NCBI GenBank assembly: GCA_963700285.1 | Contig: CAVOXA010000001.1 | Coordinates: 128,001 to 192,000, forward strand | DNA length: 64,000 bases | Source of the DNA: an uncultured Chloroflexia bacterium | GTDB lineage: Bacteria; Chloroflexota; Anaerolineae; JAAYZQ01 | Direction: 5' to 3' | Shown here: positions 61 through 16,429 of the stretch, piece by piece | How the letters are laid out: every line of letters begins with the position of its first letter | How positions within the stretch are numbered: the first letter of the stretch is position 1 | Notes under the pieces: model-generated | What the model was told of the DNA's origin: nothing | Database searches by the model: none | The model's input: only the letters and a program-made list of their open reading frames with translations | Program-made: the position numbers and the translations under genes

Positions 61-1488
61 ATGACTCAGATTGTACGGGCCGAGCGCGCCGCCTATCGCT
101 ATCCACAGAACAATCATGGTCTGAGGCTCATCTCCCTGGCCATTGAGCCGGGGGAGCGGGTGCTGGTTGCCGGGCCGTCAGGCTGTGGCAAGAGTACCCT
201 GGTTCGCTGCCTGACGGGCCTCATCCCCCACCTCTATCATGGTACGCTGGAGGGTGAAGTGTGGCTGGATGGGCTGCGTACAGTCGATGCGCCCATGTGG
301 CAACTGGCCGAAAGGGCCGGGCTGGTTTTTCAGAATCCTGCCGCCCAGATGCTGGCCCAGTCTGTCGAAGAGGAGATCATCTTTGGTTTGGAGAACCTGG
401 GCCTGTCGCGAGAGATAATCCGCGAGCGATTGGATGCCACGCTGGACCTTTTTGGTCTGGAGTCGATGCGCAAACGGACGCCCCAGACCCTGTCCGGTGG
501 AGAGCAGCAGAAACTGGCTCTGGCGGCTACTACAGCCCGGCGTCCACAGGTCCTCGTGCTGGATGAGCCACTCTCGATGCTGGATGGTACAGCGGCAACC
601 GAGCTGGTTCAGCACCTGACCCACCTGGCGGACGCGGGTACGACGGTCGTCGTGTGCGAGCACCGTGAGGAGTACCTCGGGACGGTGCCCAAGCTGCGTA
701 CAGTAAGCCTCGAGGGTCCTACTGTCAAAGAGGCCGCGATCCCAAAGCTTGAGCCCTATCTCCATGAGCCTCAAGCTCGGAGGCTAGAAGTGAAGGGACT
801 GACGGTGGCCTTGGGCGGGCAGCCTGTCCTCCAGGATCTGAGCTTCTCGGCAGAGATGGGCCATGTGGTGGCCGTGGTGGGTCGCAATGGCGTGGGCAAA
901 ACTACGCTCCTTCGAGCCTTGGTCGGCCTGCAAAAACACGAAGGATCTATCACCATGAACGGTGGCCGTCCTGACCTGGGTATGGTCTTTCAAAACGCCG
1001 ATCTGCAGCTCTTCAATGCCACCGTCCGCGACGAAATCCTCTACCGGGTGCCCGAACCGGACATGGATCTCTATGGCTGGTTGCTGGAGGCGCTGGGACT
1101 TGCTCACTACGAGGGTGTGCCGCCCCTTCTGCTGAGTGAAGGCGAAAAGAAGCGGGTGGCGCTGGCCACGGTCCTCATGCGCCGGCCGCGCCATGGCCTG
1201 CTGCTCGATGAGCCGTCGCTGGGACAGGACGCGGCTCACAAGAAGCAATTGATCCGGGTGGCTCGCACGCTGGCCGAGGCTGGACAACTGGTGGTACTCA
1301 CCACCCACGATCTGACGCTGGCGGCGCAGGCTGACCGCGTGGCGCTGTTGGGGTCGGATGGCTTTGTGGCCCATGGACCGCCGGCTGAGGTCATGGACGA
1401 CGATGCCTCATGGGCACAGCTTGGCCTTTCGGTGCCCGACTGGGTCAAGCCCTCGGGCGTAAGGGCCGTGGAGGGGCTGGAAGTGTGA
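61..1488 (+). CDS. ECF transporter ATPase with two tandem ABC domains (EcfA/A' fusion)
   Basis: Two Walker A motifs (GPSGCGKS, GRNGVGKT), signatures LSGGEQQK and LSEGEKKR, VFQNP motif typical of CbiO/EcfA; ATG at 61 follows AAGGA. Confidence 0.9.
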   Translation: MTQIVRAERAAYRYPQNNHGLRLISLAIEPGERVLVAGPSGCGKSTLVRCLTGLIPHLYHGTLEGEVWLDGLRTVDAPMWQLAERAGLVFQNPAAQMLAQSVEEEIIFGLENLGLSREIIRERLDATLDLFGLESMRKRTPQTLSGGEQQKLALAATTARRPQVLVLDEPLSMLDGTAATELVQHLTHLADAGTTVVVCEHREEYLGTVPKLRTVSLEGPTVKEAAIPKLEPYLHEPQARRLEVKGLTVALGGQPVLQDLSFSAEMGHVVAVVGRNGVGKTTLLRALVGLQKHEGSITMNGGRPDLGMVFQNADLQLFNATVRDEILYRVPEPDMDLYGWLLEALGLAHYEGVPPLLLSEGEKKRVALATVLMRRPRHGLLLDEPSLGQDAAHKKQLIRVARTLAEAGQLVVLTTHDLTLAAQADRVALLGSDGFVAHGPPAEVMDDDASWAQLGLSVPDWVKPSGVRAVEGLEV

Positions 1489-2213
1489 TCAGACTGGGTA
1501 CGACCGGCCGAACGCGGAACCTGGTACTGCAGGAGGCTTCGCCCCTGCGCCAGGCCGATCCTCGTACCAAGTTGGCGCTGAGCCTGTGCGCCTCGTTGGC
1601 AGTAATGCTGACCCTGGAGAAGCTGGTGGTCTTTATTGCCTTCTACGCGCTGCTGCTGCTCTGGGCGCGGCTTTTGCCCGATGCAGCGCAGCAGATCTGG
1701 CGGCTCAAGTGGGTGCTCGTCGTGCTCTTTGTGGTGGATTGGCTGTTCGTAGGCCTGGATCTGGCCGTCATTGTGACCCTCAGGCTGATTCTGTTGGCGG
1801 CGGCCTTTTCCCTCTTTTTCGCCACAACCACGCCAGGTGAGCTGCGCCTGGCCCTGGAATGGTTTCGTGTGCCCTATCGATACGCCTTTGGGCTGGCCCT
1901 TGCTTTCCAGAGCGTGGGCCTGCTGGATGACGAGTGGCGGGGCATTATCGAGGCACAGCGTGCTCGGGGAGCATGGCCCTCCAAGCCACATTGGCGGGAG
2001 ATACTGGACTATGTACGAGATCTGGTGGCGCTGTCGGTGCCGGCCGTTGTGATGACCACCAAACGTGCCTGGGCCATGAACGAGGCGGCCTATGCACGGG
2101 GATTCGATTCGCCCCACCGGCGCTCCTACCATCAATTGACAATGGGCTGGCTGGACTGGGTGCTGTTGGTTGGTACGGTCGCTGCCACAGCGGCATTACT
2201 GGCCTGGAAGTAG
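1485..2213 (+). CDS. ecfT: ECF transporter transmembrane T component (EcfT/CbiQ family)
   Basis: DPRTKL, TTTPGEL, EAQRARG and ARGF motifs; GTG start overlaps the ATPase stop (GTGA). Confidence 0.85.
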   Translation: MIRLGTTGRTRNLVLQEASPLRQADPRTKLALSLCASLAVMLTLEKLVVFIAFYALLLLWARLLPDAAQQIWRLKWVLVVLFVVDWLFVGLDLAVIVTLRLILLAAAFSLFFATTTPGELRLALEWFRVPYRYAFGLALAFQSVGLLDDEWRGIIEAQRARGAWPSKPHWREILDYVRDLVALSVPAVVMTTKRAWAMNEAAYARGFDSPHRRSYHQLTMGWLDWVLLVGTVAATAALLAWK

Positions 2214-2306
2214 TGTCCGAGCCGCAGGTGGTTGGGGCAGCACTGTGTGCGAGTTCGCTGTCCAGGCATGTCGTGAAACTGGAGGCTGCGTAAATAGGGA
2301 GGCTGT

Positions 2307-2816
2307 ATGGCTCAACGAACCAGGATTTTGATCGGGGTTGCGATGCTCATCATTTTGGTGGTCGCGGTGCTGGGTATCGATCTGCTGCAGCGAGCCTCAA
2401 GAGAGCCCCAGGACCTTGCCAAAGGCGAGCCCACAGTTGCGGCGGGCAGCATCCCCATCCGCCTGGATGGCCGGCTGATGGGCAGTTTTGGCCCCACTGA
2501 CCTGGATACTCTCGAGATGGTGAGTTTTGTCGAAGCAGAGGAGGGCAAGACCGAGGAGGGCTGGCTGCTGCGAGATGCCCTCCTGCTCCACGTGGACGAT
2601 CAAGAACTCGAGCCGGACATGGTCATCGTCGTCAGCAGCAGCAGCCGGGACAAGGCAGCCGAACTGACCTGGGCGGAGGTGGATGACCCGGCCAACTGGG
2701 TGATGTTTGATCTCTCGGGCCGGGGTACGCTCAAGCTGGTGTCGGTGCTGGAGAGGCTGGACACGAGGGATGAGTGGGTGCAGGATGTGGATGGGATCGA
2801 GATCTCGAGCCCGTGA
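2307..2816 (+). CDS. Membrane-anchored or secreted hypothetical protein inside the ECF operon
   Basis: GGAGG RBS; N-terminal hydrophobic helix then an acidic soluble domain. Confidence 0.7.
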   Translation: MAQRTRILIGVAMLIILVVAVLGIDLLQRASREPQDLAKGEPTVAAGSIPIRLDGRLMGSFGPTDLDTLEMVSFVEAEEGKTEEGWLLRDALLLHVDDQELEPDMVIVVSSSSRDKAAELTWAEVDDPANWVMFDLSGRGTLKLVSVLERLDTRDEWVQDVDGIEISSP

Positions 2817-2885
2817 TGACTGACGGCAGACGACAGGCGGGTGTTTGGTCTGGGCCTTGTCCTTTGTCCATCCCTGGGGTGATCT

Positions 2886-3434
2886 ATGAAGGAGCGGTAT
2901 TTTTCGACTTTTGAACTCATCTTGATCGCGCTTTTTGCCGCACTGATTGTGGTGTCCAAGATCGCGCTGCGTCTGCCGCTACAATTGTCCGGCCACTCGG
3001 GGATCTTTTGGATGGCCATCGTCATCGTCGCCACTGGGGTTGTGCCCAAGGTGGGGACGGCCAGTCTGGTGGGTCTCACCTCTGGCTTGGTAGCTGCTTT
3101 CCTGGGCATGGGCGACTTTGGCGCGCTAAACACCTTCTTGTCGTATACGGCCGTGGGTGTCAGTACCGATCTGGCACTCCTGGTGCTGGGCCGCAACCCG
3201 GAAAACCCGGTCGTCGCCATGTTGGCGGGCGCCATTGGTCACTTTGGCAAGTTTCTGGTCAAGTATGGCTTTGCCACCCTGGCAGGAGCGCCGGTAGGGA
3301 TTGTCGTCCTCGGCCTGGCTCGGGGCATTGTGGGCTATATTGTCTTTGGGGCGCTGGGCGGACTGCTCGGCGCGTTCACGCTGCGGGCGCTGCGGCGAGC
3401 TGGCTTTTTTGCCTACCTGGCCGAGAAGAAATAG
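2886..3434 (+). CDS. ECF transporter S (substrate-specific) component
   Basis: 182 aa, about 6 TM helices, N-terminal IALFAAL (AxxxA) motif, co-operonic with ecfA/ecfT. Confidence 0.8.
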   Translation: MKERYFSTFELILIALFAALIVVSKIALRLPLQLSGHSGIFWMAIVIVATGVVPKVGTASLVGLTSGLVAAFLGMGDFGALNTFLSYTAVGVSTDLALLVLGRNPENPVVAMLAGAIGHFGKFLVKYGFATLAGAPVGIVVLGLARGIVGYIVFGALGGLLGAFTLRALRRAGFFAYLAEKK

Positions 3435-3435
3435 C

Positions 3436-3479
3436 GCTCAAAAACAGGGCCACCCCATGGGGTGGCCCTGTTTTTGAGC
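3436..3479. terminator. Bidirectional intrinsic terminator (perfect 44-bp palindrome)
   Basis: GCTCAAAAACAGGGCCACCCCA|TGGGGTGGCCCTGTTTTTGAGC between convergent genes; T-tracts on both strands. Confidence 0.85.
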
Positions 3480-3502
3480 AGTGCACAACCTGCCACTCGC
3501 AG

Positions 3503-4610
3503 CTAGTTTTCCTCGATCTTGATGGTCAGAATCGCGTCGCCGGGGAGGCCAGGGTTCTGCTGCGGATCACGCGGGGTTATCGCGTCCAAGATGTCCTGCC
3601 CCTCAATGACGCGCCCAAATACGGTGTGGCGATCATCCAGGTGGGGCGTGGCGTCGTAGGTGATAAAAAATTGGCTGCCGTTGGTGTTGGGACCAGAATT
3701 GGCCATCGAGAGCACGCCCGGTCCATCGTGGCGCAGCTCGGGATGGAATTCATCGGCAAAGCTGTAGCCGGGGCCGCCCGTGCCTGTCCCCGTGGGGTCG
3801 CCGCCCTGGGCCATGAATCCAGGCAACACCCGGTGGAAAGTCGTGTTGTCGTAGAAACCCTCGCCTGCCAGGAAAACAAAGCTATTGACGGTATTTGGCG
3901 CCTTGTCAGCATAGAGTTCGATCACGATCTCGCCATTTTCGGTCACGATGGTAGCTTGGTATGATTTGTCAGAGTCAATGGTCATCGGCGGCGGATCGGC
4001 ATAGATGCCGTTGCGCTGGGCGGGTTCCAGGTCGCCAGCCTTTTGCCCCGGCGCCAGGGTCGGAATTGGCTCTGGTTCCAGCAACCCCTGTTGGATGAAA
4101 AAGTCCTTTACGGCCACCCGCTCCGCCTCTGGTGCGAGCTCGATGGACTTAACCGCGGCTGAGACGGCCTCGTCGATGTCGCCTTTTTCCTGAAAGAGCA
4201 CAGCAAGATTGGCATAGTTGGCAAAATCATCGGGCGCCATCTCGAGCAAAATCTCGGTCTCGGCGATGGACTCGTCCAGCATTCCCTGCTGGAAATAGAC
4301 GTAGGCCAGCGCGGAATGGGCCTGGATATTCTCGGCATCTAGTTCGATGATCTGCTGGAAGGTCCCTTCAGCCCCGGCCAGATCTCCGCTGTTGATCTGT
4401 TGGCTGCCCTGAACCATGAGTTCCTCGACCGACTCTGCACCGGAGCCGGATTCGGGCGCGGCCGATGCTTCAGGCTCGATGGTTGTTTCCGGTATGTCTG
4501 TCGGTGCGGTCGTGGGCGCCGGCTCCACTGGTGGGTGTGGGACCCACCAGTGGGCCACAAGCTGCCAAGGACAATATCACAAAGGCCAAGAACACGGTTT
4601 GGATCTTCAT
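3503..4610 (-). CDS. Lipoprotein with TPR repeats and a C-terminal cyclophilin-type peptidyl-prolyl isomerase; one frameshift near 4530
   Basis: [22 protein letters not shown] and [17 protein letters not shown] cyclophilin motifs; ATG at 4610 gives [18 protein letters not shown] (lipobox), out of frame with the 3503-4558 ORF. Confidence 0.85.
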
Positions 4611-8794: not shown

Positions 8795-9985
8795 TTATCG
8801 TCCAGCCACGTTGAGATCGAACCAGCGCAACAGAGCCTGGAGTACGTCCCTATCGGGCGATCGCATGGCCGTGGTACGGGGGACCACTCCGAGCACACCC
8901 TGGCTTGCCCATTGGTCAAAGAGGCTGTCCTCGCCGGTCACTGGCACCTCGGGGTTCGCCGGTCGCAGGCCATAGGCCAGCGCCTGTTTTTGTACTTTCT
9001 CTGACAACAGGTATCTTTCAAATTCCAATGCGGCGTTCTTTTCAGCGGCCGATGTCTCGGGGCCCATCCACACCGTAAAAGGAAAATCAAACCAGGTCAC
9101 ATATTCTGGGTATACGAGGCGTAACGGATCGGCCCAGCGGGTCTGGATGCCCTGCATGTTGACCAGCAGGTCGCTCTCGAGCAATTGCCCGGCATCTCCG
9201 GTCGTGTAGCCAAAGAGGGCCAGGTCAGACACAGTATAGGTCCCGCCCGACAGGTCGCTCATGGAACTCATGATCTCGCCCAGCCAGGCTTGGAACTCTG
9301 GATCGGTCACGTCCTCGACGCTAATGTTGGTCCGGCCATAGTACTCACCAGCTGCCGCAACCATGGCCGCCAGACCACTGATGTTCTTACGTGGATTGGA
9401 TATGGCCAACTTGAAGTAGCCCCAATCGCTCTCTCCTTCCAGCTCCCCCCAGCCACCAGGGGCGATGGCCGCGTCGTGGATCGTTTGCCAGGAGATCTCG
9501 TCGTATCGTTCTTCCAGCACGTCCGCACGACTGTCATAGATGCCCCAGGCTAGCAGCGAGATGGCCAGTGGCCGCGCACGATACTCCCCATCGGTAAGAA
9601 AGACGTCACGGCCTAGCCGTTCCTTGTAGGCCGCGTTGACCAGTTCCACCAGGTAGCGGCTGTCGGGGATCCAGACGGTAGGCAAGGGGTCCAGTTCATC
9701 CCGTTCGTAACGCCCTTTAGCGGTCAGACCATCCATGGGAGTGACTGTCACCTGGATAGGGCGGCCTTCCAGCGTATGCCCTTCAGCGTTGAACTGGTGG
9801 GCAGCTTCTTGTACCCAGTCCGCCACTGGCAAAGCGGAAGCGATCTGTACTTCCAAGGTCTCGTCACTGGCCTCGGGCGCCAGCGGGTCTGGCTGTTTGT
9901 TCACCTGACTCCAGATCAACCCGCCAGCGACGATCACGATGGCCAGGCCAATGATCACAAAGAAAATGATGCGTGTTCGGTTCAT
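8795..9985 (-). CDS. Membrane-anchored solute-binding-fold protein, paralogous to the SBP part of the VWA protein
   Basis: N-terminal TM; VWIPDS, ISWQ, FDFPF and YLLS..VQ..ALAYGLRPA align by eye with 7002-8720. Confidence 0.8.
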   Translation of the reverse strand: MNRTRIIFFVIIGLAIVIVAGGLIWSQVNKQPDPLAPEASDETLEVQIASALPVADWVQEAAHQFNAEGHTLEGRPIQVTVTPMDGLTAKGRYERDELDPLPTVWIPDSRYLVELVNAAYKERLGRDVFLTDGEYRARPLAISLLAWGIYDSRADVLEERYDEISWQTIHDAAIAPGGWGELEGESDWGYFKLAISNPRKNISGLAAMVAAAGEYYGRTNISVEDVTDPEFQAWLGEIMSSMSDLSGGTYTVSDLALFGYTTGDAGQLLESDLLVNMQGIQTRWADPLRLVYPEYVTWFDFPFTVWMGPETSAAEKNAALEFERYLLSEKVQKQALAYGLRPANPEVPVTGEDSLFDQWASQGVLGVVPRTTAMRSPDRDVLQALLRWFDLNVAGR

Positions 9986-10037
9986 AACCGTGTCCTTAAT
10001 GCCTCAAGAATCCTGCATTACTCCATCGCACCGAATA

Positions 10038-10715
10038 TTAGTCTAACCTCAGACGCGCCTTGCGCTCGGCCAGTTGGGATTCCAGGGCACGCTGCTCCAA
10101 GACCTCGTCCATCTGGGCATCCAGGCTGCTGGCCTGCATCTCGCTCTGTGCCGTGGCCTTGTCCAGCCTGGCCCGGATCCCTTCGGCTACACGCGCGATG
10201 TCGTCGTCACCCGAACCAGTCAGGTCGTCCAGGGACTTGTAGGTCTTGGCCGTCAGCTCCTTGGAGCGAGCCAGATCCAGAAGGGCTTGCAGTTCCTCCC
10301 GTTCCTGCTTGACCTCGGTCAACTTGGCTTCCAGCTTCAGGCGGACTTCTTGCAGGCTTTGGAATTCGGCCTCTTGGCGTTCCAGTACTTGCTCGTAGTT
10401 CTGGATCAAGCGATTGGTCGAGTTCAGCCTGCTCTGGGCGGCCAAGGCCAGGTCATCTTTGCCCTCTCGCAGGAAAATGTCAATGTTGCGGTCGAGGTCG
10501 CTAGCCTTCTGGTCCAGAACTGTCTTCTTGCGGCGCAGAGTCTTGACTTCGCCGCCGACCGTAGCGACGGCGTCCTCCAAGTTCTCCAGGTTGTCTTCCA
10601 CCTCTCGAACGTACTGGTCAAAGACGGCCAAGGAGTTGGCCTTGAGTGCCACGTCTACCATCGCGTGCAGGTTGGCCGAAATCAGCGTCTGAACCTTTTC
10701 CAACAGGCTTGCCAT
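10038..10715 (-). CDS. pspA: PspA/IM30 (bacterial ESCRT-III-like) family protein
   Basis: 225 aa all-helical; amphipathic MASLLEKVQTLISANLHAMVD start; LREGKDDLALAA motif; C-terminal LESQLAERKARL; GGAGG RBS. Confidence 0.85.
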   Translation of the reverse strand: MASLLEKVQTLISANLHAMVDVALKANSLAVFDQYVREVEDNLENLEDAVATVGGEVKTLRRKKTVLDQKASDLDRNIDIFLREGKDDLALAAQSRLNSTNRLIQNYEQVLERQEAEFQSLQEVRLKLEAKLTEVKQEREELQALLDLARSKELTAKTYKSLDDLTGSGDDDIARVAEGIRARLDKATAQSEMQASSLDAQMDEVLEQRALESQLAERKARLRLD

Positions 10716-10817
10716 GAATTGTCCCTCCTACTCAACCTGATAGAAGATTCGTCTTTTCTGCCAAAGCCCTATGACGCCCCGCAAAAGAACGCCAGAGAAG
10801 AGCTTTTTCGTCGACTC

Positions 10818-10871
10818 ATTCTACCATTGACCGCCATGCCTTGCATGACCGGCTGCTGACAGCCTGCTGAC
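10818..10871 (-). promoter_or_regulatory. pspA operon promoter: TAGAAT -10 plus three GTCA direct repeats at 11-bp period (PhoB/OmpR-type boxes)
   Basis: Plus-strand TGAC at 10846, 10857, 10868; ATTCTA at 10818-10823; no consensus -35. Confidence 0.65.
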
Positions 10872-10980
10872 GATGGGGGGGCTCGGTCTGAAGACTGTCA
10901 CCCACTGTTTTCCAAGCATCGGCCCGAAAAAGGCTCTGCGTCCCGCTGATTGGGACTTGGAGCGACTGACAGCATAGGTT

Positions 10981-12357
10981 TTAGGACGTGACCAGCTTGT
11001 AGCCCCTCCCTCGTACGGTGACGATGTAGCGGGGGTTTCGCGGATCCGGTTCAAGCTTGGCCCGCAACCTGCTTAGCAGCTTGTCAATACGGGCATCGTC
11101 TACCTGGTCGATATACTCCTCGCCCCACACCGCTTCGACGATCTGGTACTTGTCACAGATTTTGTTCAGGCGGCCGTAGAGCAAGAGGAGCAGGCGGTAC
11201 TCGAGCTCGGTCAGGGTGGCGGTCTGGCGGCTATCCACCCAAACACTGCCACTTTCGACATCCACACGTACACCCTCGTGGCGCCGTCGTCGGGTCAGGC
11301 GCTGGCGACGGACAAAGCCTTCGAATACAGGGGAGAGGAGGATATCCTCCTCCCTGCGGATCAACCCCTTGTTCCGCAAGGAATCCAGTGTGCGTTCATC
11401 CAGGTCTTCTTCACTGCCAACAATGGTCATCAGTGCATCCTGCTGTACCTCGGTCAGGTCAGTCCATAGCTTGCGGCATTCGGCCTGAATATTGATGTCA
11501 CTGTCGAGTTGTTCTCGTACCTGACGGTGGATCAACCAGTCCTGGCCCTCATCCCGTACCGGCTCGCCGGTGACCTCGCCCAACGCCCGGCAGACAGCTA
11601 GCAACAATCCCTGGTGGCCGTCTGCGTGATGGTACAGAAAAGCCCGGTCTTGGTCGTCAAAAGTGTAGCCCTCCTGGATCGCGACCCAAGTGATGATTTG
11701 ATCCACGTCGGCCCTGTTCAGCGGCCCAAGGAAACGCGTAAATGGCTGAAACAGCTCAACGAATTCATCCACATCCCTCCCGCGGCGGATGTTCGATAGC
11801 CTACGGTTGGTGGCCGTCACATAGTTCAGCCGTTCGCGATACTTGTCCTTGAGCGCCCGGAGATTCAAAAAGGCCCGCCCGTCGATCTGCTCAAAGGGTT
11901 CGTCGAACTCGTCAAAGAGCAGCACCAGGTTCCTGGTCGCCTCCCGGCACACGGCCGTCAGCCCCTCACTGAAACTGAGCGAGATCTGAAAAACGGTGGG
12001 CGGGGAAACCAACGTCTGGTATGCGCTCTGCAACTGGGGCAAGAACTCTGCACTGGGATCCTGGATCGTCAACTCTTCCAGCAGGCAGCGCAGAATGAGT
12101 TCGTAGAACCCTTGCTCGGACGCCTCCAGCATCAAGTTAAAATCCACATAGACAAAGATTCGTTCGTCATCATCAAGGCGAGTGGGTCTGGCGGATTGGT
12201 CGTCCAGCAACCAATCCCTGGTCTCAAGGCGAGCCAGCGAGCGCAACAAATGCGACTTGCCCGTGTTGCTCAGGCCAACCACGGCACAGCAATCGCCTTC
12301 GGTAATCCTCTGCAGGATGTAAGTGCTGTCTTCCTGACGCAGTCTATCTGGTAGCAT
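10981..12357 (-). CDS. P-loop ATPase (STAND/AAA-like) fused to a C-terminal OmpR/PhoB-type winged-helix DNA-binding domain
   Basis: Walker A GLSNTGKS, Walker B LLFDEFD; C-terminal LTELEYRLL...SRLRAKLEPDPRNPRYIVTVRGRGYKL; no receiver domain. Confidence 0.85.
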   Translation of the reverse strand: MLPDRLRQEDSTYILQRITEGDCCAVVGLSNTGKSHLLRSLARLETRDWLLDDQSARPTRLDDDERIFVYVDFNLMLEASEQGFYELILRCLLEELTIQDPSAEFLPQLQSAYQTLVSPPTVFQISLSFSEGLTAVCREATRNLVLLFDEFDEPFEQIDGRAFLNLRALKDKYRERLNYVTATNRRLSNIRRGRDVDEFVELFQPFTRFLGPLNRADVDQIITWVAIQEGYTFDDQDRAFLYHHADGHQGLLLAVCRALGEVTGEPVRDEGQDWLIHRQVREQLDSDINIQAECRKLWTDLTEVQQDALMTIVGSEEDLDERTLDSLRNKGLIRREEDILLSPVFEGFVRRQRLTRRRRHEGVRVDVESGSVWVDSRQTATLTELEYRLLLLLYGRLNKICDKYQIVEAVWGEEYIDQVDDARIDKLLSRLRAKLEPDPRNPRYIVTVRGRGYKLVTS

Positions 12358-12489
12358 CTCTCTCTCTTTCGGCCCAAGTCAAGATACGACCTGGCCCCAT
12401 CCTTTCCTGTAGCGCAAAGTACCGGCTCGGGACAAGGGGCTATCCCCGCCACGGGGCGGCAGGCCCGAAAATCGCGCCCAGATCAGAGA

Positions 12490-13602
12490 TCAGCGGACAA
12501 GCCCAAGGTTGGCCAGTAGGATGCAGGCCAACTCACCGCCATCCAATTCTACCACAGCGACCGGCAATCTGATACCCGAGTCAACCCTCTGTGGCAAGGC
12601 AGGCAGTTCGAGTACTGTGCCCACCACCCCCTGGTAGGGCGCCCGCAAGCCCCGGACGCGCATCCCCACCTGTACCGGTCGGGGATCGGGCTCCTGCGGT
12701 TCTGCATCCTGGGCTGCGTCGCAGGGTATGAACACATTTGGACGCCTACTTTCCCAGCCTGACGGGCCATCTGCGGTGATCGCCGCATTGCGCCCTTCAT
12801 TGGCCTGAAACAAGGTGAAGGCTTCGTGACGCATGCCAAATGCCCCGAACCCTTCGGTCACCAATACGGGGCAGGGCAACGCTTCTAGCCGTGGACGCAG
12901 CCCAGCGTCCACGCTTCCCACGACCAGTCCCCCAATCTGGGTGTCTACTGCCTTGTCCAGGGCTGCTTCGTCCATGATGGCTCCGCCCACTGCCAAGGTC
13001 TTGTGGCCGTATCTGGGGCTGTCGCCGGGACCATCGCCGGTATCTTCCGCGTCAAACGAATCGGCCGTCAGCAGCTGCTCGGGTTCATCTACCAGTACTC
13101 GAAGTATGCCAGCGGCCTCACCACCACTCCCCCACAAGCCCTGGATCAATGCTCCTACCGCGGAGATGACCGCGCCTCGTCCAGGGACAACGTCCGTGAC
13201 GCGTCCGGTGATTTGAGATCGCAGCTCAAGCGTGGTGGCTTCCGCTTCGACCAGGACCGCGCCGTGGCGTATGGCCACCACCTGTCCATCCACTGGTGCC
13301 TGGCAGCGGCGGCTCCGCCAACTGAACCGGCTCTCTCGTTCCGCCAGTACGTCGTTGGCCCGGACAAGGTCACCGACGTTCTGCCTCACATACTGAACGA
13401 CCTGCTCACGGTTGATACCCAGAGCCAGGCTCACATCAGCTACCCAGACTTTGCCTGGCATCTGGCAACGGGCTATTGTGCCGCCTGGTTCTACCCCGTC
13501 GCCCGGCTGTACCAAGACCTCTCCAGGAACGGGCAGGAGTCGTTCTCGCCGGATGATTGTCAGGGGCAAGCTCTGAGACCCTGCGGAATAGCAGGTGGGC
13601 AT
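12490..13602 (-). CDS. Hypothetical protein with barrel-sandwich-hybrid-like and C-terminal KOW-like segments; downstream partner of the GlmL-like gene
   Basis: PGEVLVQPGDGV, APVDGQVVAI, IQGLWGSG, VLVTEGFG, VGMRVR..RAPYQGVVGTV. Confidence 0.7.
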   Translation of the reverse strand: MPTCYSAGSQSLPLTIIRRERLLPVPGEVLVQPGDGVEPGGTIARCQMPGKVWVADVSLALGINREQVVQYVRQNVGDLVRANDVLAERESRFSWRSRRCQAPVDGQVVAIRHGAVLVEAEATTLELRSQITGRVTDVVPGRGAVISAVGALIQGLWGSGGEAAGILRVLVDEPEQLLTADSFDAEDTGDGPGDSPRYGHKTLAVGGAIMDEAALDKAVDTQIGGLVVGSVDAGLRPRLEALPCPVLVTEGFGAFGMRHEAFTLFQANEGRNAAITADGPSGWESRRPNVFIPCDAAQDAEPQEPDPRPVQVGMRVRGLRAPYQGVVGTVLELPALPQRVDSGIRLPVAVVELDGGELACILLANLGLVR

Positions 13603-13706: not shown

Positions 13707-16118
13707 CTAGAACGTCTGCGACCCGATGTCTGATAGCCAGCGTTGCATTCTTGCCTGCTGTTCTCCGGGATCCTTGGTCCGGAGCAGGGGCCGTCCCCGT
13801 GCATCGATAATGACCCCCAAAGCGCCACCTTCGACCTCTTTTGTTACAGCCTGTCCTCTGGCCCCCATGCCCAAGGCGAAACGATTGGTAGGCCGGATCT
13901 CCAAGATTGCCCTGTGTCCGGCAGGCAATGGGAGTACTTTGAGCGAGCCAAATGGCACCCTCGCTTCCATGGCTCGACCATCTTTATACTCGATCTTGAC
14001 GGTCAGGGCAACTTTTCCCTCACGCGCTGTTCCCATGGGCGCCACCACGGTCCCCAGCCTCAGCAGGGCATCCCGCTCCAGTACTTGCAGGGCTGCCAAG
14101 GGGCTAACTGCTGCCACTGCACCTACGGCGGCTGCCAAGCCCAAACGATCCAAGGCCAGGCTGCTCATGCCCACCGGCTGCAGCCCATCGAGCAGAATGA
14201 GGGCTGCCAGACCAGGATGAGGGGCGCTGCCCAGTACCCCCCCCGCTCCAATGATCAGGTCGAACTGCGGTGTCGAGCCCGGGTGCGGAGCTGGCCCATT
14301 GGCGCGCTCTTGGGCGCAAGCGGTCATGGTCCAGCCCAAGATCTCACGGGCGATGGCCTGTTCCAGGAACAGATCCTGACGTGTCTGGGGCAGCGTGTGC
14401 GGGTGCAGTTCTTTGTTGTACAGTGCGTTGCGGGCCTCGGTTGCGTCCAGATGAAAGGGCAGCCAGCCCAGCAGCGACTCTAGCGGTACGTGGTCTAGGA
14501 TTCGGGCAGCCTGGTGGCTGGTACCCAGCTCACCGCATATGAACAGGTCAGGCAGCCTGTCCACCATGGTTGCCACTGCCGTTGTCGCGCCGCCCACATC
14601 CACGGCCAGGATATTGGCCAGATCTTTGTCAGGCTGCGCCAAACGCGCTCTGCTGTACTGGGCGAGATACTGGACTGTGAAGGCCAGTGCCCCGGCCGTT
14701 GGCAGCATCTGGGCAGAACTCCATGCTGCCATTGACCTATAGCCCGGCAAGTACTTTGTCGTATGCTGGTCGTGCAGGTCTTTAACAACGGCCCGAAGGG
14801 GGCCGAGATTCTCCATTTCCGCACTGGGCCGTACATCCTCCACGACCTGTAGTCTGGTGGCATCGCCGACAATACGGGATACTTCCTGCTGTAGAGATCG
14901 ATTGCCAGCATAGATGATAGGCGGGCAGCCAGCCGGCGCTCGCAGTGCATTGCAGGCCACGGTCATTGCCTCCACCGACCTCAGTATCGGTTCGCAACCG
15001 GTGCCAGCCTCACCACCTATCACCACAATGGCATCCGGGATTAGCTCTTGGACCAATCGGACCTGGCTTTCAATGTCCTCAGCAAGGACGTTTCCTGTCC
15101 GCCCATCCGCAATGACGAGACCCTCGATCACGGCATAGGAAAGGGACAAGGCGCGTCGGGCGCTTTCCACGGGTGCCTTATGGGTGGGGGCCGCCAGCAA
15201 AAGCCGTAGTGGGCCACTGGCGCTGGTGGTGAGCACCACTGCGTCTACCCCACCTCCTTGCCCTTCGGGACTGATGATTTGCCCCAGATCGTCCAGGATC
15301 CGCACACCAGTCATGCTGACCATCTGGCCCAGTGCCTGCCGGGCCGAGATGGCCATATCACTCCAAGGGGGCTGGAAGCTGCTGGGCGCTTTGGCCCAGG
15401 CGATCAGGCGGAACTCGTCCTCGACCAAGCCAATGAGGAAAGCTCGAGTCAGCGTGCTGCCACAATCAATGGCCAGGATCGACTCGATGGGATCACAAGG
15501 GGTAGTACTTGTTGTCCTATCATTCGCTCGCTCAGGTGATTGCACGAGCTGGGCACCGATTTCCGGCACCGTCCCTGCCGGCAGCGTCACAATCTCGGAA
15601 AAGTGGCGTGCAGCGTCCAAAATTCTTGCATGGCTCGCGCCAGCATCCTGGAAGCTATTCTCCGTGGAGCTAGATTTGGCCATCGCTCGCGAGGGAGACT
15701 GTGCTATCCAGTCCCCTACGGGCAATGGATCCTGAATGCCAGCCAGCAGATTGGATCCCGCAGAGATGAACCTGGGCACTGAAAACTCTATCCCCCCTTC
15801 CGCCATCAATGGACCGGGTGAGAGGGAAGGGTCCTCATCAGGTGGAGGGAGGTCTGCCAACCATGCTGGAGTCCCACTGCTATCCTTGAGAGAGGCAGGC
15901 AGGCTGTCCTCTTGTGCGGTCTGAGGATCTGTGACCTCCACAGAATGCGACGGTGATAATTGTTCCCCGCACTCGTTACAGAGTGCGTCGGCAATAGGGT
16001 TCAGCGCCCCACACCGGGAACACTTGATCTGCATCGAGAGATCGAACTTGACCCCACACTCGTTGCAGTAATTGCTACCGCGGCGGTTAGCGGTCCCGCA
16101 AAGGGGACAGTAGATCAT
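13707..16118 (-). CDS. GlmL-family (glutamate mutase L-like) ASKHA ATPase with an N-terminal double zinc ribbon
   Basis: AIDCGSTLT, AVDVGGATT, IIGAGGVL, IIDARGRP; N-terminal CPLC..CNEC..CSRC..CNEC; start set at ATG 16118 after GAGG. Confidence 0.8.
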   Translation of the reverse strand: MIYCPLCGTANRRGSNYCNECGVKFDLSMQIKCSRCGALNPIADALCNECGEQLSPSHSVEVTDPQTAQEDSLPASLKDSSGTPAWLADLPPPDEDPSLSPGPLMAEGGIEFSVPRFISAGSNLLAGIQDPLPVGDWIAQSPSRAMAKSSSTENSFQDAGASHARILDAARHFSEIVTLPAGTVPEIGAQLVQSPERANDRTTSTTPCDPIESILAIDCGSTLTRAFLIGLVEDEFRLIAWAKAPSSFQPPWSDMAISARQALGQMVSMTGVRILDDLGQIISPEGQGGGVDAVVLTTSASGPLRLLLAAPTHKAPVESARRALSLSYAVIEGLVIADGRTGNVLAEDIESQVRLVQELIPDAIVVIGGEAGTGCEPILRSVEAMTVACNALRAPAGCPPIIYAGNRSLQQEVSRIVGDATRLQVVEDVRPSAEMENLGPLRAVVKDLHDQHTTKYLPGYRSMAAWSSAQMLPTAGALAFTVQYLAQYSRARLAQPDKDLANILAVDVGGATTAVATMVDRLPDLFICGELGTSHQAARILDHVPLESLLGWLPFHLDATEARNALYNKELHPHTLPQTRQDLFLEQAIAREILGWTMTACAQERANGPAPHPGSTPQFDLIIGAGGVLGSAPHPGLAALILLDGLQPVGMSSLALDRLGLAAAVGAVAAVSPLAALQVLERDALLRLGTVVAPMGTAREGKVALTVKIEYKDGRAMEARVPFGSLKVLPLPAGHRAILEIRPTNRFALGMGARGQAVTKEVEGGALGVIIDARGRPLLRTKDPGEQQARMQRWLSDIGSQTF

Positions 16119-16429
16119 CTTAGCCTCGATCTGGTCCAGGACTCGGGTACCCATGTACCTGTGATGACACATGGGTTGCCGCTGTGAGACTGGCCCCGCC
16201 TGCATGTTCGCCTGGTCTAGAAGCTCTTGGAGTTATCCGCTGGGTTCTTGTTTTGGCTCTCACAATGTCAGCCGGATGACAGCCGTGAGAGCAAAGTATA
16301 CCATGCCTCAGCCTGTTGGGCAAGTTGCTTTTGGAAACGTGGGATATCGCACCCGCAGGCACGTCAGCATCCTCGCTCCTTGAAGGGTTTCTAACCGTAC
16401 CTGGGGGAAACAGAAATGCCGTGAAGGAT

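Follow-up and report, generated by a model that had tools for sequence, protein, structure and literature searches.

Membrane repair of the PspA/IM30/ESCRT-III type is universal, and its control is understood in few phyla (through PspF, LiaRS and ClgR). How, then, is pspA switched on in the Anaerolineae, a large and mostly uncultured class of the Chloroflexota that is abundant in sediments and sludge? The question is raised by a 64-kb window, the whole stretch of DNA analysed here, which comes from the 7.05-Mb, 89% complete genome of an uncultured member of the class (G000) and in which a pspA gene follows the gene of a 458-residue regulator. All coordinates are those of the window, and the regulator gene, pspA, the repeats between them and all genes of the operon lie on the minus strand (Table 1). 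From the sequence, it is probable that three GTCA repeats upstream of pspA are the site of this adjacent, receiver-less regulator of combined STAND and OmpR type, which would activate an extended -10 promoter of the sigma-70 type that has no usable -35 element.

The 265-nt spacer between the regulator gene and pspA reads, on the minus strand, GTCAGCAGGCT GTCAGCAGCCG GTCATGCAAGG, followed by 15 nt and then TAGAAT. It thus contains three GTCA at an exact 11-bp period (minus strand, 10871-10846), and the pattern GTCA-N7-GTCA-N7-GTCA has this one match in the 64 kb (10846-10871, minus), where shuffled sequence gives an expectation of 0.02 and 2 of 100 shuffles contained a match. The TAGAAT hexamer (10823-10818) sits 26 nt past the third repeat's G and, with a TG ahead of it at 10826-10825, is an extended -10, a point absent from the initial annotation of this DNA. 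At a spacing of 17 bp, the -35 position is occupied by ATGCAA, which has three of six matches to TTGACA. A scan for consensus promoters and terminators found no two-hexamer sigma-70 site in 9900-12700 and no intergenic terminator, and Rfam gave no match in 9900-12600 at E <= 1. The initial annotation had described three GTCA at an 11-bp period that reach the -35 position of a TAGAAT -10 lacking a consensus -35; the repeats are confirmed by reading of the sequence and by the pattern search, and the missing -35 by the poor hexamer and the scan. A fourth GTCA (10831-10828, minus) lies between repeat 3 and the -10 and is found elsewhere only in the same-genus relative L001; it lies outside the conserved element. 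Metatranscriptome contigs from four runs, amounting to small shares of the window, fall on pspA and its leader (9900-10233, 10393-10543 and 10628-10778); such contigs cannot show start, strand or level, and the parts left bare, including the regulator gene, prove nothing.

Comparison of related loci shows the repeats to be a conserved component of the pspA promoter. Using the regulator as the query, we retrieved 52 related loci (405 kb in total), all from metagenome-assembled genomes of Chloroflexota, with regulators 43-96% identical to that of the window. A strict motif, defined as GTC-N8-GTC-N8-GTC, occurred within 270 nt 5' of the pspA start in 35 of the 41 regions available for this test (40 loci and the window), whereas mononucleotide shuffles averaged 0.034 and never exceeded 1 of 41. 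Presence of the repeats upstream of orthologous pspA genes had been set beforehand as a check on the proposal, and the repeats proved to be both present and fixed in position. When both strands of all 405 kb were searched, the strict motif stood at the pspA promoter in 40 of the 52 loci, and the only two other matches were homologous to each other. The 12 loci that lack it comprise nine without a nearby pspA, one that ends within the regulator gene, and two (L030 and L052) that carry a degenerate version. A weight matrix built without the window's site and without its closest same-genus relative scored the window's site at 45.7 bits, and the next-best sites in the 7.05 Mb of G000 at 24.7, 22.7 and 22.5 bits.

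Pooling promoters gave 95 distinct sites, in which GTC is invariant because the search required it, with the consensus tGTCAGcc...tGTCaG..g...GTCAtGca, about 15 unconserved bases, and tG.tA.aaT. After the GTC of repeat 1, A follows in 74 of the 95 sites and G in 90. In 85 of the 95, a TAnnnT hexamer lies 25-27 nt past the third GTC, 66 of them having a distance of exactly 26 nt; 64 of these 85 hexamers are preceded by TG. Across the loci, spacer bases are unconserved and GTCAG or GTCATG is retained; the GTC cores and their geometry have been kept while the spacers diverged, which is the signature of a protein-binding site phased with a promoter.

The element belongs, by its distribution, to pspA and not to the 3' end of the regulator gene. 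Of the 40 loci with the motif, 38 have the regulator gene directly 5' of it; the two exceptions (L048 and L051) have pspA 3.4 kb and 1.5 kb from the regulator, respectively, and in both the element is found at pspA. Four of five genomes with an unlinked regulator proved to have pspA at another place, in every case with the element and, at the same distance, TGnTAnnAT; in G024 and G032, the element likewise sits at a pspA away from the regulator. The idea that regulators without an adjacent pspA form a separate paralogous subfamily was rejected, because pspA elsewhere in those genomes also carries the motif; in a maximum-likelihood tree of 37 aligned regulators, the unlinked ones are nested in three places among the linked ones.

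Presence of the motif follows presence of the regulator gene across genomes. Among the 40 relatives, the strict motif was found in all 22 genomes (that of the window included) with a regulator and a readable pspA upstream region. We then sampled 201 Anaerolineae genomes, evenly drawn and each at least 90% complete, of which 92 have the regulator and 105 a pspA orthologue; both genes occur in 77, pspA alone in 28, the regulator alone in 15 and neither in 81 (a split made by eye from two tables). The 450 nt 5' of pspA were scanned in 89 further genomes of the class, 64 with and 25 without the regulator. Those with the regulator had the strict motif in 45 cases and a weight-matrix score of at least 8 bits in 58, the latter figure not being independent because the matrix was partly built from the same genomes. 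Those without it had the strict motif in one case (G141), and the other 24 scored 3.5 bits or less. Combined, the strict motif precedes pspA in 67 of the 86 regulator-bearing genomes and in 2 of the 29 that lack it, counts that are not independent because many genomes share ancestry and kinship inflates them; the 29 regulator-less genomes come from about 13 families. This co-occurrence supports the link between the repeats and the adjacent regulator that the initial annotation had drawn.

Regulator-less genomes among the relatives (G011, G015, G021 and G036) have the motif before pspA only in G011. The contrast that tells most lies within the window's family: its members G015 and G021, 95% and 94% complete, possess pspA and a flotillin operon, with no regulator gene and no motif at either of the two promoters; the regulator was not found in these two genomes when its N-terminal 340 residues were used as the query either. 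One lineage of regulator-bearing genomes (G053, G055, G093, G124 and G154, at loci L152, L153, L168, L178 and L188) has a third-repeat variant in which TTCAGGAA replaces GTCATG, so that the third repeat reads TTCA, with the first two repeats and the spacing to the -10 preserved. In some other regulator-bearing genomes, the first repeat has decayed.

A second operon, not mentioned in the initial annotation, carries the same element. The site scoring 22.7 bits in G000 (G000:C15:271136) reads GTCAGATGGCA GTCAGGAATGC GTCATGCG, with 26 nt from the third G to TATACT, and precedes genes for an NfeD-like membrane protein and a flotillin (271136-273700 of the contig; about 1137-3700 of locus L061). These genes are intact in G001, of the same genus, where SPFH/Band_7 matches at 6.9e-28 and NfeD at 0.0058, the latter under its cut-off. 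In G000, they are split over several reading frames and apparently frameshifted, which reflects either assembly indels or decay. The strict motif was found at the NfeD-like/flotillin operon in 14 of 23 genomes of relatives: 12 of the 16 with the regulator, and 2 of the 7 in which it was not found, those two being under 82% complete. The operon has tandem promoters (L063-L084), one with TATACT and the motif and, about 40 nt downstream, an extended -10 of sequence TGGTATAAT; in G010, G011, G015 and G021, members of the family without the regulator, only the TGGTATAAT promoter is left. Because the same element recurs at a second operon, we favor a small regulon over a single controlled promoter. 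Operons of pspA and flotillin are functionally linked elsewhere, and a survey of Psp systems (PMC11237479) lists band-7/flotillin and YqiJ/YuaF-type genes as recurrent partners of PspA, so that the pairing makes biological sense. The 24.7-bit site (G000:C22:122953) has only two GTC units. A third site with three GTC (G000:C1:1549909; about position 910 of L062) has TACGAT at the right distance, stands before a gene for a DUF7544 multi-pass membrane protein and directly follows a histidine-kinase gene; since no more than 5 of the 24 loci related to it, which include paralogues, have the strict motif, it was kept as a lead only and not counted as a regulon member.

What kind of protein would read these repeats? 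The regulator belongs to the OmpR-type winged-helix and STAND nucleoside triphosphatase (NTPase) superfamilies. Residues 379-455 match Pfam Trans_reg_C over profile positions 3-77 of 77 (70.7 bits; cut-off 26.2), and residues 7-332 match nSTAND1 (31.3 bits; cut-off 27.1); AAA_16, AAA_22 and TniB match under their cut-offs. Pfam gave no match to a receiver domain (Response_reg), BTAD, GerE/LuxR or Sigma54_activat (PF00158), nor to a repeat family (TPR, WD40 or LRR-type sensor). Alignments to NCBIfam response-regulator models begin only at about model position 118-160 and score far under the cut-offs. Pfam and NCBIfam thus bear out the original description of a PhoB/OmpR winged helix joined to a P-loop ATPase in place of a receiver. 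The protein misses the defining features of response regulators, SARPs, LAL/MalT proteins and enhancer-binding proteins.

When solved structures were searched by sequence, only the winged helix found matches, the best to RegX3 (1.2e-12), RpaA and MtrA, with PhoB chains at E of about 4e-5; the N-terminal module found nothing, and its relatives came from the fold search alone. The AlphaFold2 model (predicted local distance difference test score, pLDDT, 89.9; predicted template modelling score 0.74) fills all 458 residues with an NTPase domain, a helical lid, a winged helix, a linker helix and the OmpR-type winged helix. On this model, the regulator has no sensor domain. The nucleotide-binding domain, the helical lid with a GGHxGLL motif and the first winged helix make up residues ~1-345. 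Foldseek neighbors of this module are the archaeal Walker ATPases PABY2304 and SSO1545, Orc1/Cdc6, CED-4 and plant NB-ARC, and those of the C-terminus are KdpE and RpaA. Across 37 aligned orthologues (42-80% identical to the query), the winged helix is the best conserved part, and the invariant residues include Walker A (G28-x-S-N-x-G-K34-S35), Walker B (D149-E150-F-D152), R167, and G247-H248 of GGHxGLL, which we read as the GxP-type motif of STAND proteins. The family is large, with 1726 matches at E <= 1e-5 among 7996 scored candidates, and its members carry public names such as 'hypothetical', 'winged helix-turn-helix domain-containing' and 'Novel STAND NTPase 1'. Beyond the Anaerolineae the regulator is rare, with matches in 5 of 200 sampled genomes of other Chloroflexota, at 28-35% identity and in one family.

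The best reading of the promoter is an activator of the class II type known from SARPs and PhoB. OmpR-family winged helices bind direct repeats whose units are spaced by roughly one helical turn. Three winged helices would bind head-to-tail on one DNA face, over positions -60 to -28 or so, with the protomer nearest the promoter supplying the contact to RNA polymerase that the absent -35 cannot make, as in PhoB and SARP activators. Three evenly spaced half-sites on one face fit an oligomer, and the intact Walker motifs and STAND fold suggest nucleotide-dependent oligomerization as the switch, as in MalT and AfsR; the nucleotide state of the STAND module would then control assembly on the DNA. 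The regulator would thereby control a small membrane-stress regulon consisting of the pspA operon and the flotillin operon. Action of the receiver-less regulator at a sigma-70-type pspA promoter, as proposed in the initial annotation, is supported by the conserved repeats, by their co-occurrence with the regulator and by the failure to find Sigma54_DBD in the 89% complete G000 with a search to which control genomes responded; that the regulator activates is what we infer from the sequence. A genome-wide search with PF00158 was dropped as unspecific, since 14 of 14 controls responded.

Several observations weigh against this activator model, in addition to the kinship of the genomes and the overlap between matrix and test set described above. 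Two genomes in which no regulator was found keep the motif at pspA: G011 (91% complete), which has lost it at the flotillin operon, and G141 (90% complete). Six of the 64 regulator-bearing genomes lack the motif within 450 nt of pspA even by the weight matrix, although in three of these the 'regulator' is just 32-33% identical, and at the flotillin operon the strict motif is missing from four relatives that have the regulator. A search of G000 with the winged helix of the regulator as query found 23 further OmpR-type winged helices, which might in principle recognize such repeats. The operator could thus be real and be bound by a different OmpR-family protein, a classical response regulator, with the STAND-winged-helix protein a mere neighbor that has another target. 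PhoB-like regulators also use a GTCA-type half-site, and the motifs retained in G011 and G141 would be explained. We nevertheless consider this unlikely, given that the regulator gene is directly 5' of the motif in nearly all motif-bearing loci, that the motif is nearly confined to regulator-bearing genomes (67/86, as against 2/29), that G015 and G021 lost the regulator together with the motif at two separate promoters, and that the conserved neighborhood of the 52 loci contains no histidine kinase/response regulator pair.

It is, by a little, less likely still that the adjacent regulator binds and represses, occupying the -35 region and blocking RNA polymerase until a signal releases it. An extended -10 can function without an activator, and the TG found in 64 of 85 sites could support such transcription here; the third repeat covers the -35 position, and two-state STAND switches could equally release DNA. 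Repression fits poorly with the lack of a recognizable -35 at the conserved position and with the usual behavior of OmpR-family and SARP proteins on direct repeats overlapping the -35, where they are typically activators. The four regulator-less family members, moreover, keep just the downstream, constitutive-looking flotillin promoter, as when an activator-dependent add-on is lost, which favors activation over repression. Least probable by a wide margin is that the repeats have no regulatory function and reflect chance or passive inheritance. Taken by itself, the single match in the window could be chance, as the 2 matching shuffles in 100 illustrate, but GTC is kept while spacers diverge among loci with regulators down to 43% identity, the -10 distance is fixed, the element recurs at a second, unrelated operon, and the 35 of 41 observed compares with 0.034 of 41 in shuffles.

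If the regulator activates pspA, by what is it triggered? With no sensor repeats in the protein, the signal probably arrives via a partner, for which PspA and the gene pair upstream of the regulator are candidates. We co-folded the regulator with PspA, both as alignments, and obtained a score of 0.57 (runs of 0.57, 0.55 and 0.58; best of three controls 0.00), with at least 77% of contacts agreeing between runs and a partner pLDDT of at least 74. Of 157 solved complexes, 116 reach the mark used, as do 2 of 215 mismatched pairs; scores of 0.60 or below include 18 of those 157 complexes and both passing mismatches, and a pass in this range is more often wrong unless the guess was likely beforehand. 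Inhibition of the regulator by PspA, which the initial annotation had raised and for which co-folding was one proposed check, is on this model weakly supported. A possible scheme, which we put forward tentatively and rate as rather doubtful, is that PspA is itself the signal: in unstressed cells it would be bound to the STAND module and hold it off, and membrane damage would draw PspA to the membrane and free the activator, which would oligomerize with ATP on the GTCA repeats and switch on pspA and flotillin via sigma-70. The upstream gene pair, encoding proteins of 370 and 832 residues, is an equal candidate for the input because it is kept where pspA has moved away (in 5 of the 9 loci with no pspA nearby). 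The pair lies directly 5' of the regulator in 23 and 21 of the 52 loci, respectively, is conserved together, and may be the input module of the regulator or its operon partners; that the 370-residue protein in particular is the input partner is speculative.

By analogy with known systems, the regulator would work most like AfsR or MalT, and its operator is most like a pho box or an afs box. AfsR and the large SARPs of Streptomyces likewise join an OmpR-type DNA-binding domain to a STAND nucleotide switch; they are proteins of about 1000 residues with an OmpR-type winged helix, BTAD, NOD/NB-ARC and TPR, and SARP operators are direct repeats of 11-bp period that overlap a poor -35 element in the promoter. 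Unlike in SARPs, where it is N-terminal, the winged helix of the regulator is C-terminal, and the 458-residue protein has no BTAD or TPR match; it comes from Chloroflexota and has membrane-stress targets, whereas SARPs control antibiotic clusters. MalT and the LAL proteins share with the regulator an N-terminal STAND ATPase and a C-terminal DNA-binding domain, and MalT oligomerizes on repeated boxes in an ATP-dependent manner. MalT is held inactive by MalK, MalY and Aes bound to its NOD, which is a precedent for inhibition of the regulator by a partner such as PspA. The regulator differs in having a C-terminal domain of the OmpR and not the LuxR type, no sensor or arm domain, and half the size.

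PhoB has a winged helix of the same family, and at its promoters 11-bp direct repeats with (T)GTCA take the place of the -35. A pho box consists of two repeats, each a 7-bp core and a 4-bp A/T-rich spacer; here there are three, the conserved core is about (T)GTCAG(c), and the spacers are unconserved and not A/T-rich, and the regulator has neither the receiver nor the partner kinase of PhoB. PspF of Escherichia coli is, like the regulator, a dedicated ATPase-containing transcription factor encoded beside pspA. It is, however, a sigma-54 enhancer-binding AAA+ protein with a Fis-type helix-turn-helix that serves a -24/-12 promoter, in contrast to the -10-type promoter and the absence of a Sigma54_activat match here. 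The initial proposal of a PspF analogue therefore stands for the role and fails for the kind of ATPase, which is STAND/ORC-like and not an enhancer-binding AAA+, so that the likeness is one of role only. LiaRS is a two-component system and ClgR a Cro-like helix-turn-helix protein, both different in kind from the regulator. According to the Psp survey, the regulator coupled to pspA or liaH differs from phylum to phylum, as with LiaRS in Firmicutes and ClgR in Actinobacteria, and its main text and one supplementary file contain no OmpR, Trans_reg_C or STAND regulator beside pspA (PMC11237479). Full-text literature searches for this domain combination turned up only papers on SARPs, on NLRs or on unrelated subjects.

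With the OmpR and STAND families already known, what is new is a predicted STAND/OmpR activator that lacks a sensor and has a defined operator and a regulon of pspA and flotillin. If this holds, the Anaerolineae gain a three-part circuit of a compact ATP-switched regulator, a three-repeat operator, and pspA and flotillin target operons, and a function and an operator can be proposed for a family annotated as no more than 'hypothetical' or 'winged helix-turn-helix domain-containing'. A STAND transcription factor this minimal, with no sensor domain, also raises the question of its trigger. Should PspA be the signal, the PspA-PspF switch would have been re-invented independently with wholly different components, and in a phylum that, as judged by the search of G000, lacks sigma-54.

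Table 1 Features of the regulator-pspA locus, in window coordinates.
Feature	Coordinates	Strand	Description
Membrane-anchored protein, 572 aa	7002..8720	-	Solute-binding-like domain and VWA domain
Membrane-anchored protein, 396 aa	8795..9985	-	Sub-cut-off Pfam likeness to solute-binding proteins; one N-terminal hydrophobic segment
pspA, PspA/IM30 family, 225 aa	10038..10715	-	PspA_IM30 64.8 bits (cut-off 33.9), residues 4-221
Predicted transcription start, A	10811	-	7 nt after the -10; inferred from spacing only
Extended -10 TGGTAGAAT	10818..10826	-	Read from sequence; TAnnnT position kept in pooled sites
Repeat 3 GTCATGCAAGG	10839..10849	-	About -38 to -28 relative to the predicted start; covers the -35 position; consensus GTCATGca
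Repeat 2 GTCAGCAGCCG	10850..10860	-	About -49 to -39
Repeat 1 GTCAGCAGGCT	10861..10871	-	About -60 to -50
Regulator, 458 aa	10981..12357	-	STAND P-loop NTPase module ~1-345, linker helix, OmpR/PhoB-type winged helix ~360-458
Cytoplasmic protein, 370 aa	12490..13602	-	Weak barrel-sandwich-hybrid match
832-aa protein	13707..16205	-	Double zinc ribbon and MutL/GlmL-like (PF13941) ATPase domain, 183.9 bits

The surrounding genes are shared by many of the related loci. In 40 of the 52, a pspA orthologue in the same orientation lies 3' of the regulator. The gene of the 396-residue protein begins 52 nt past pspA, follows pspA in 25 of the 52 loci and is likely co-transcribed with it, and that of the 572-residue protein, present in 22 of the 52, is likely the final gene of the pspA operon. 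PADLOC found no defense-system match for the regulator or its four neighbors. In G011, the slot of the regulator (L090, 2173-2906) holds the gene of an unrelated 174-residue Pro/Thr-rich protein with a LAQTG-like C-terminal sorting signal. One clade (L017, L020, L021, L022, L032, L034, L036 and L049) has the motif promoter right after the regulator and pspA 240-1230 nt further on. The gap before pspA in this clade contains a conserved stretch and, in L021, an open reading frame for a 331-residue membrane protein; it may represent an extra first gene or a long leader.

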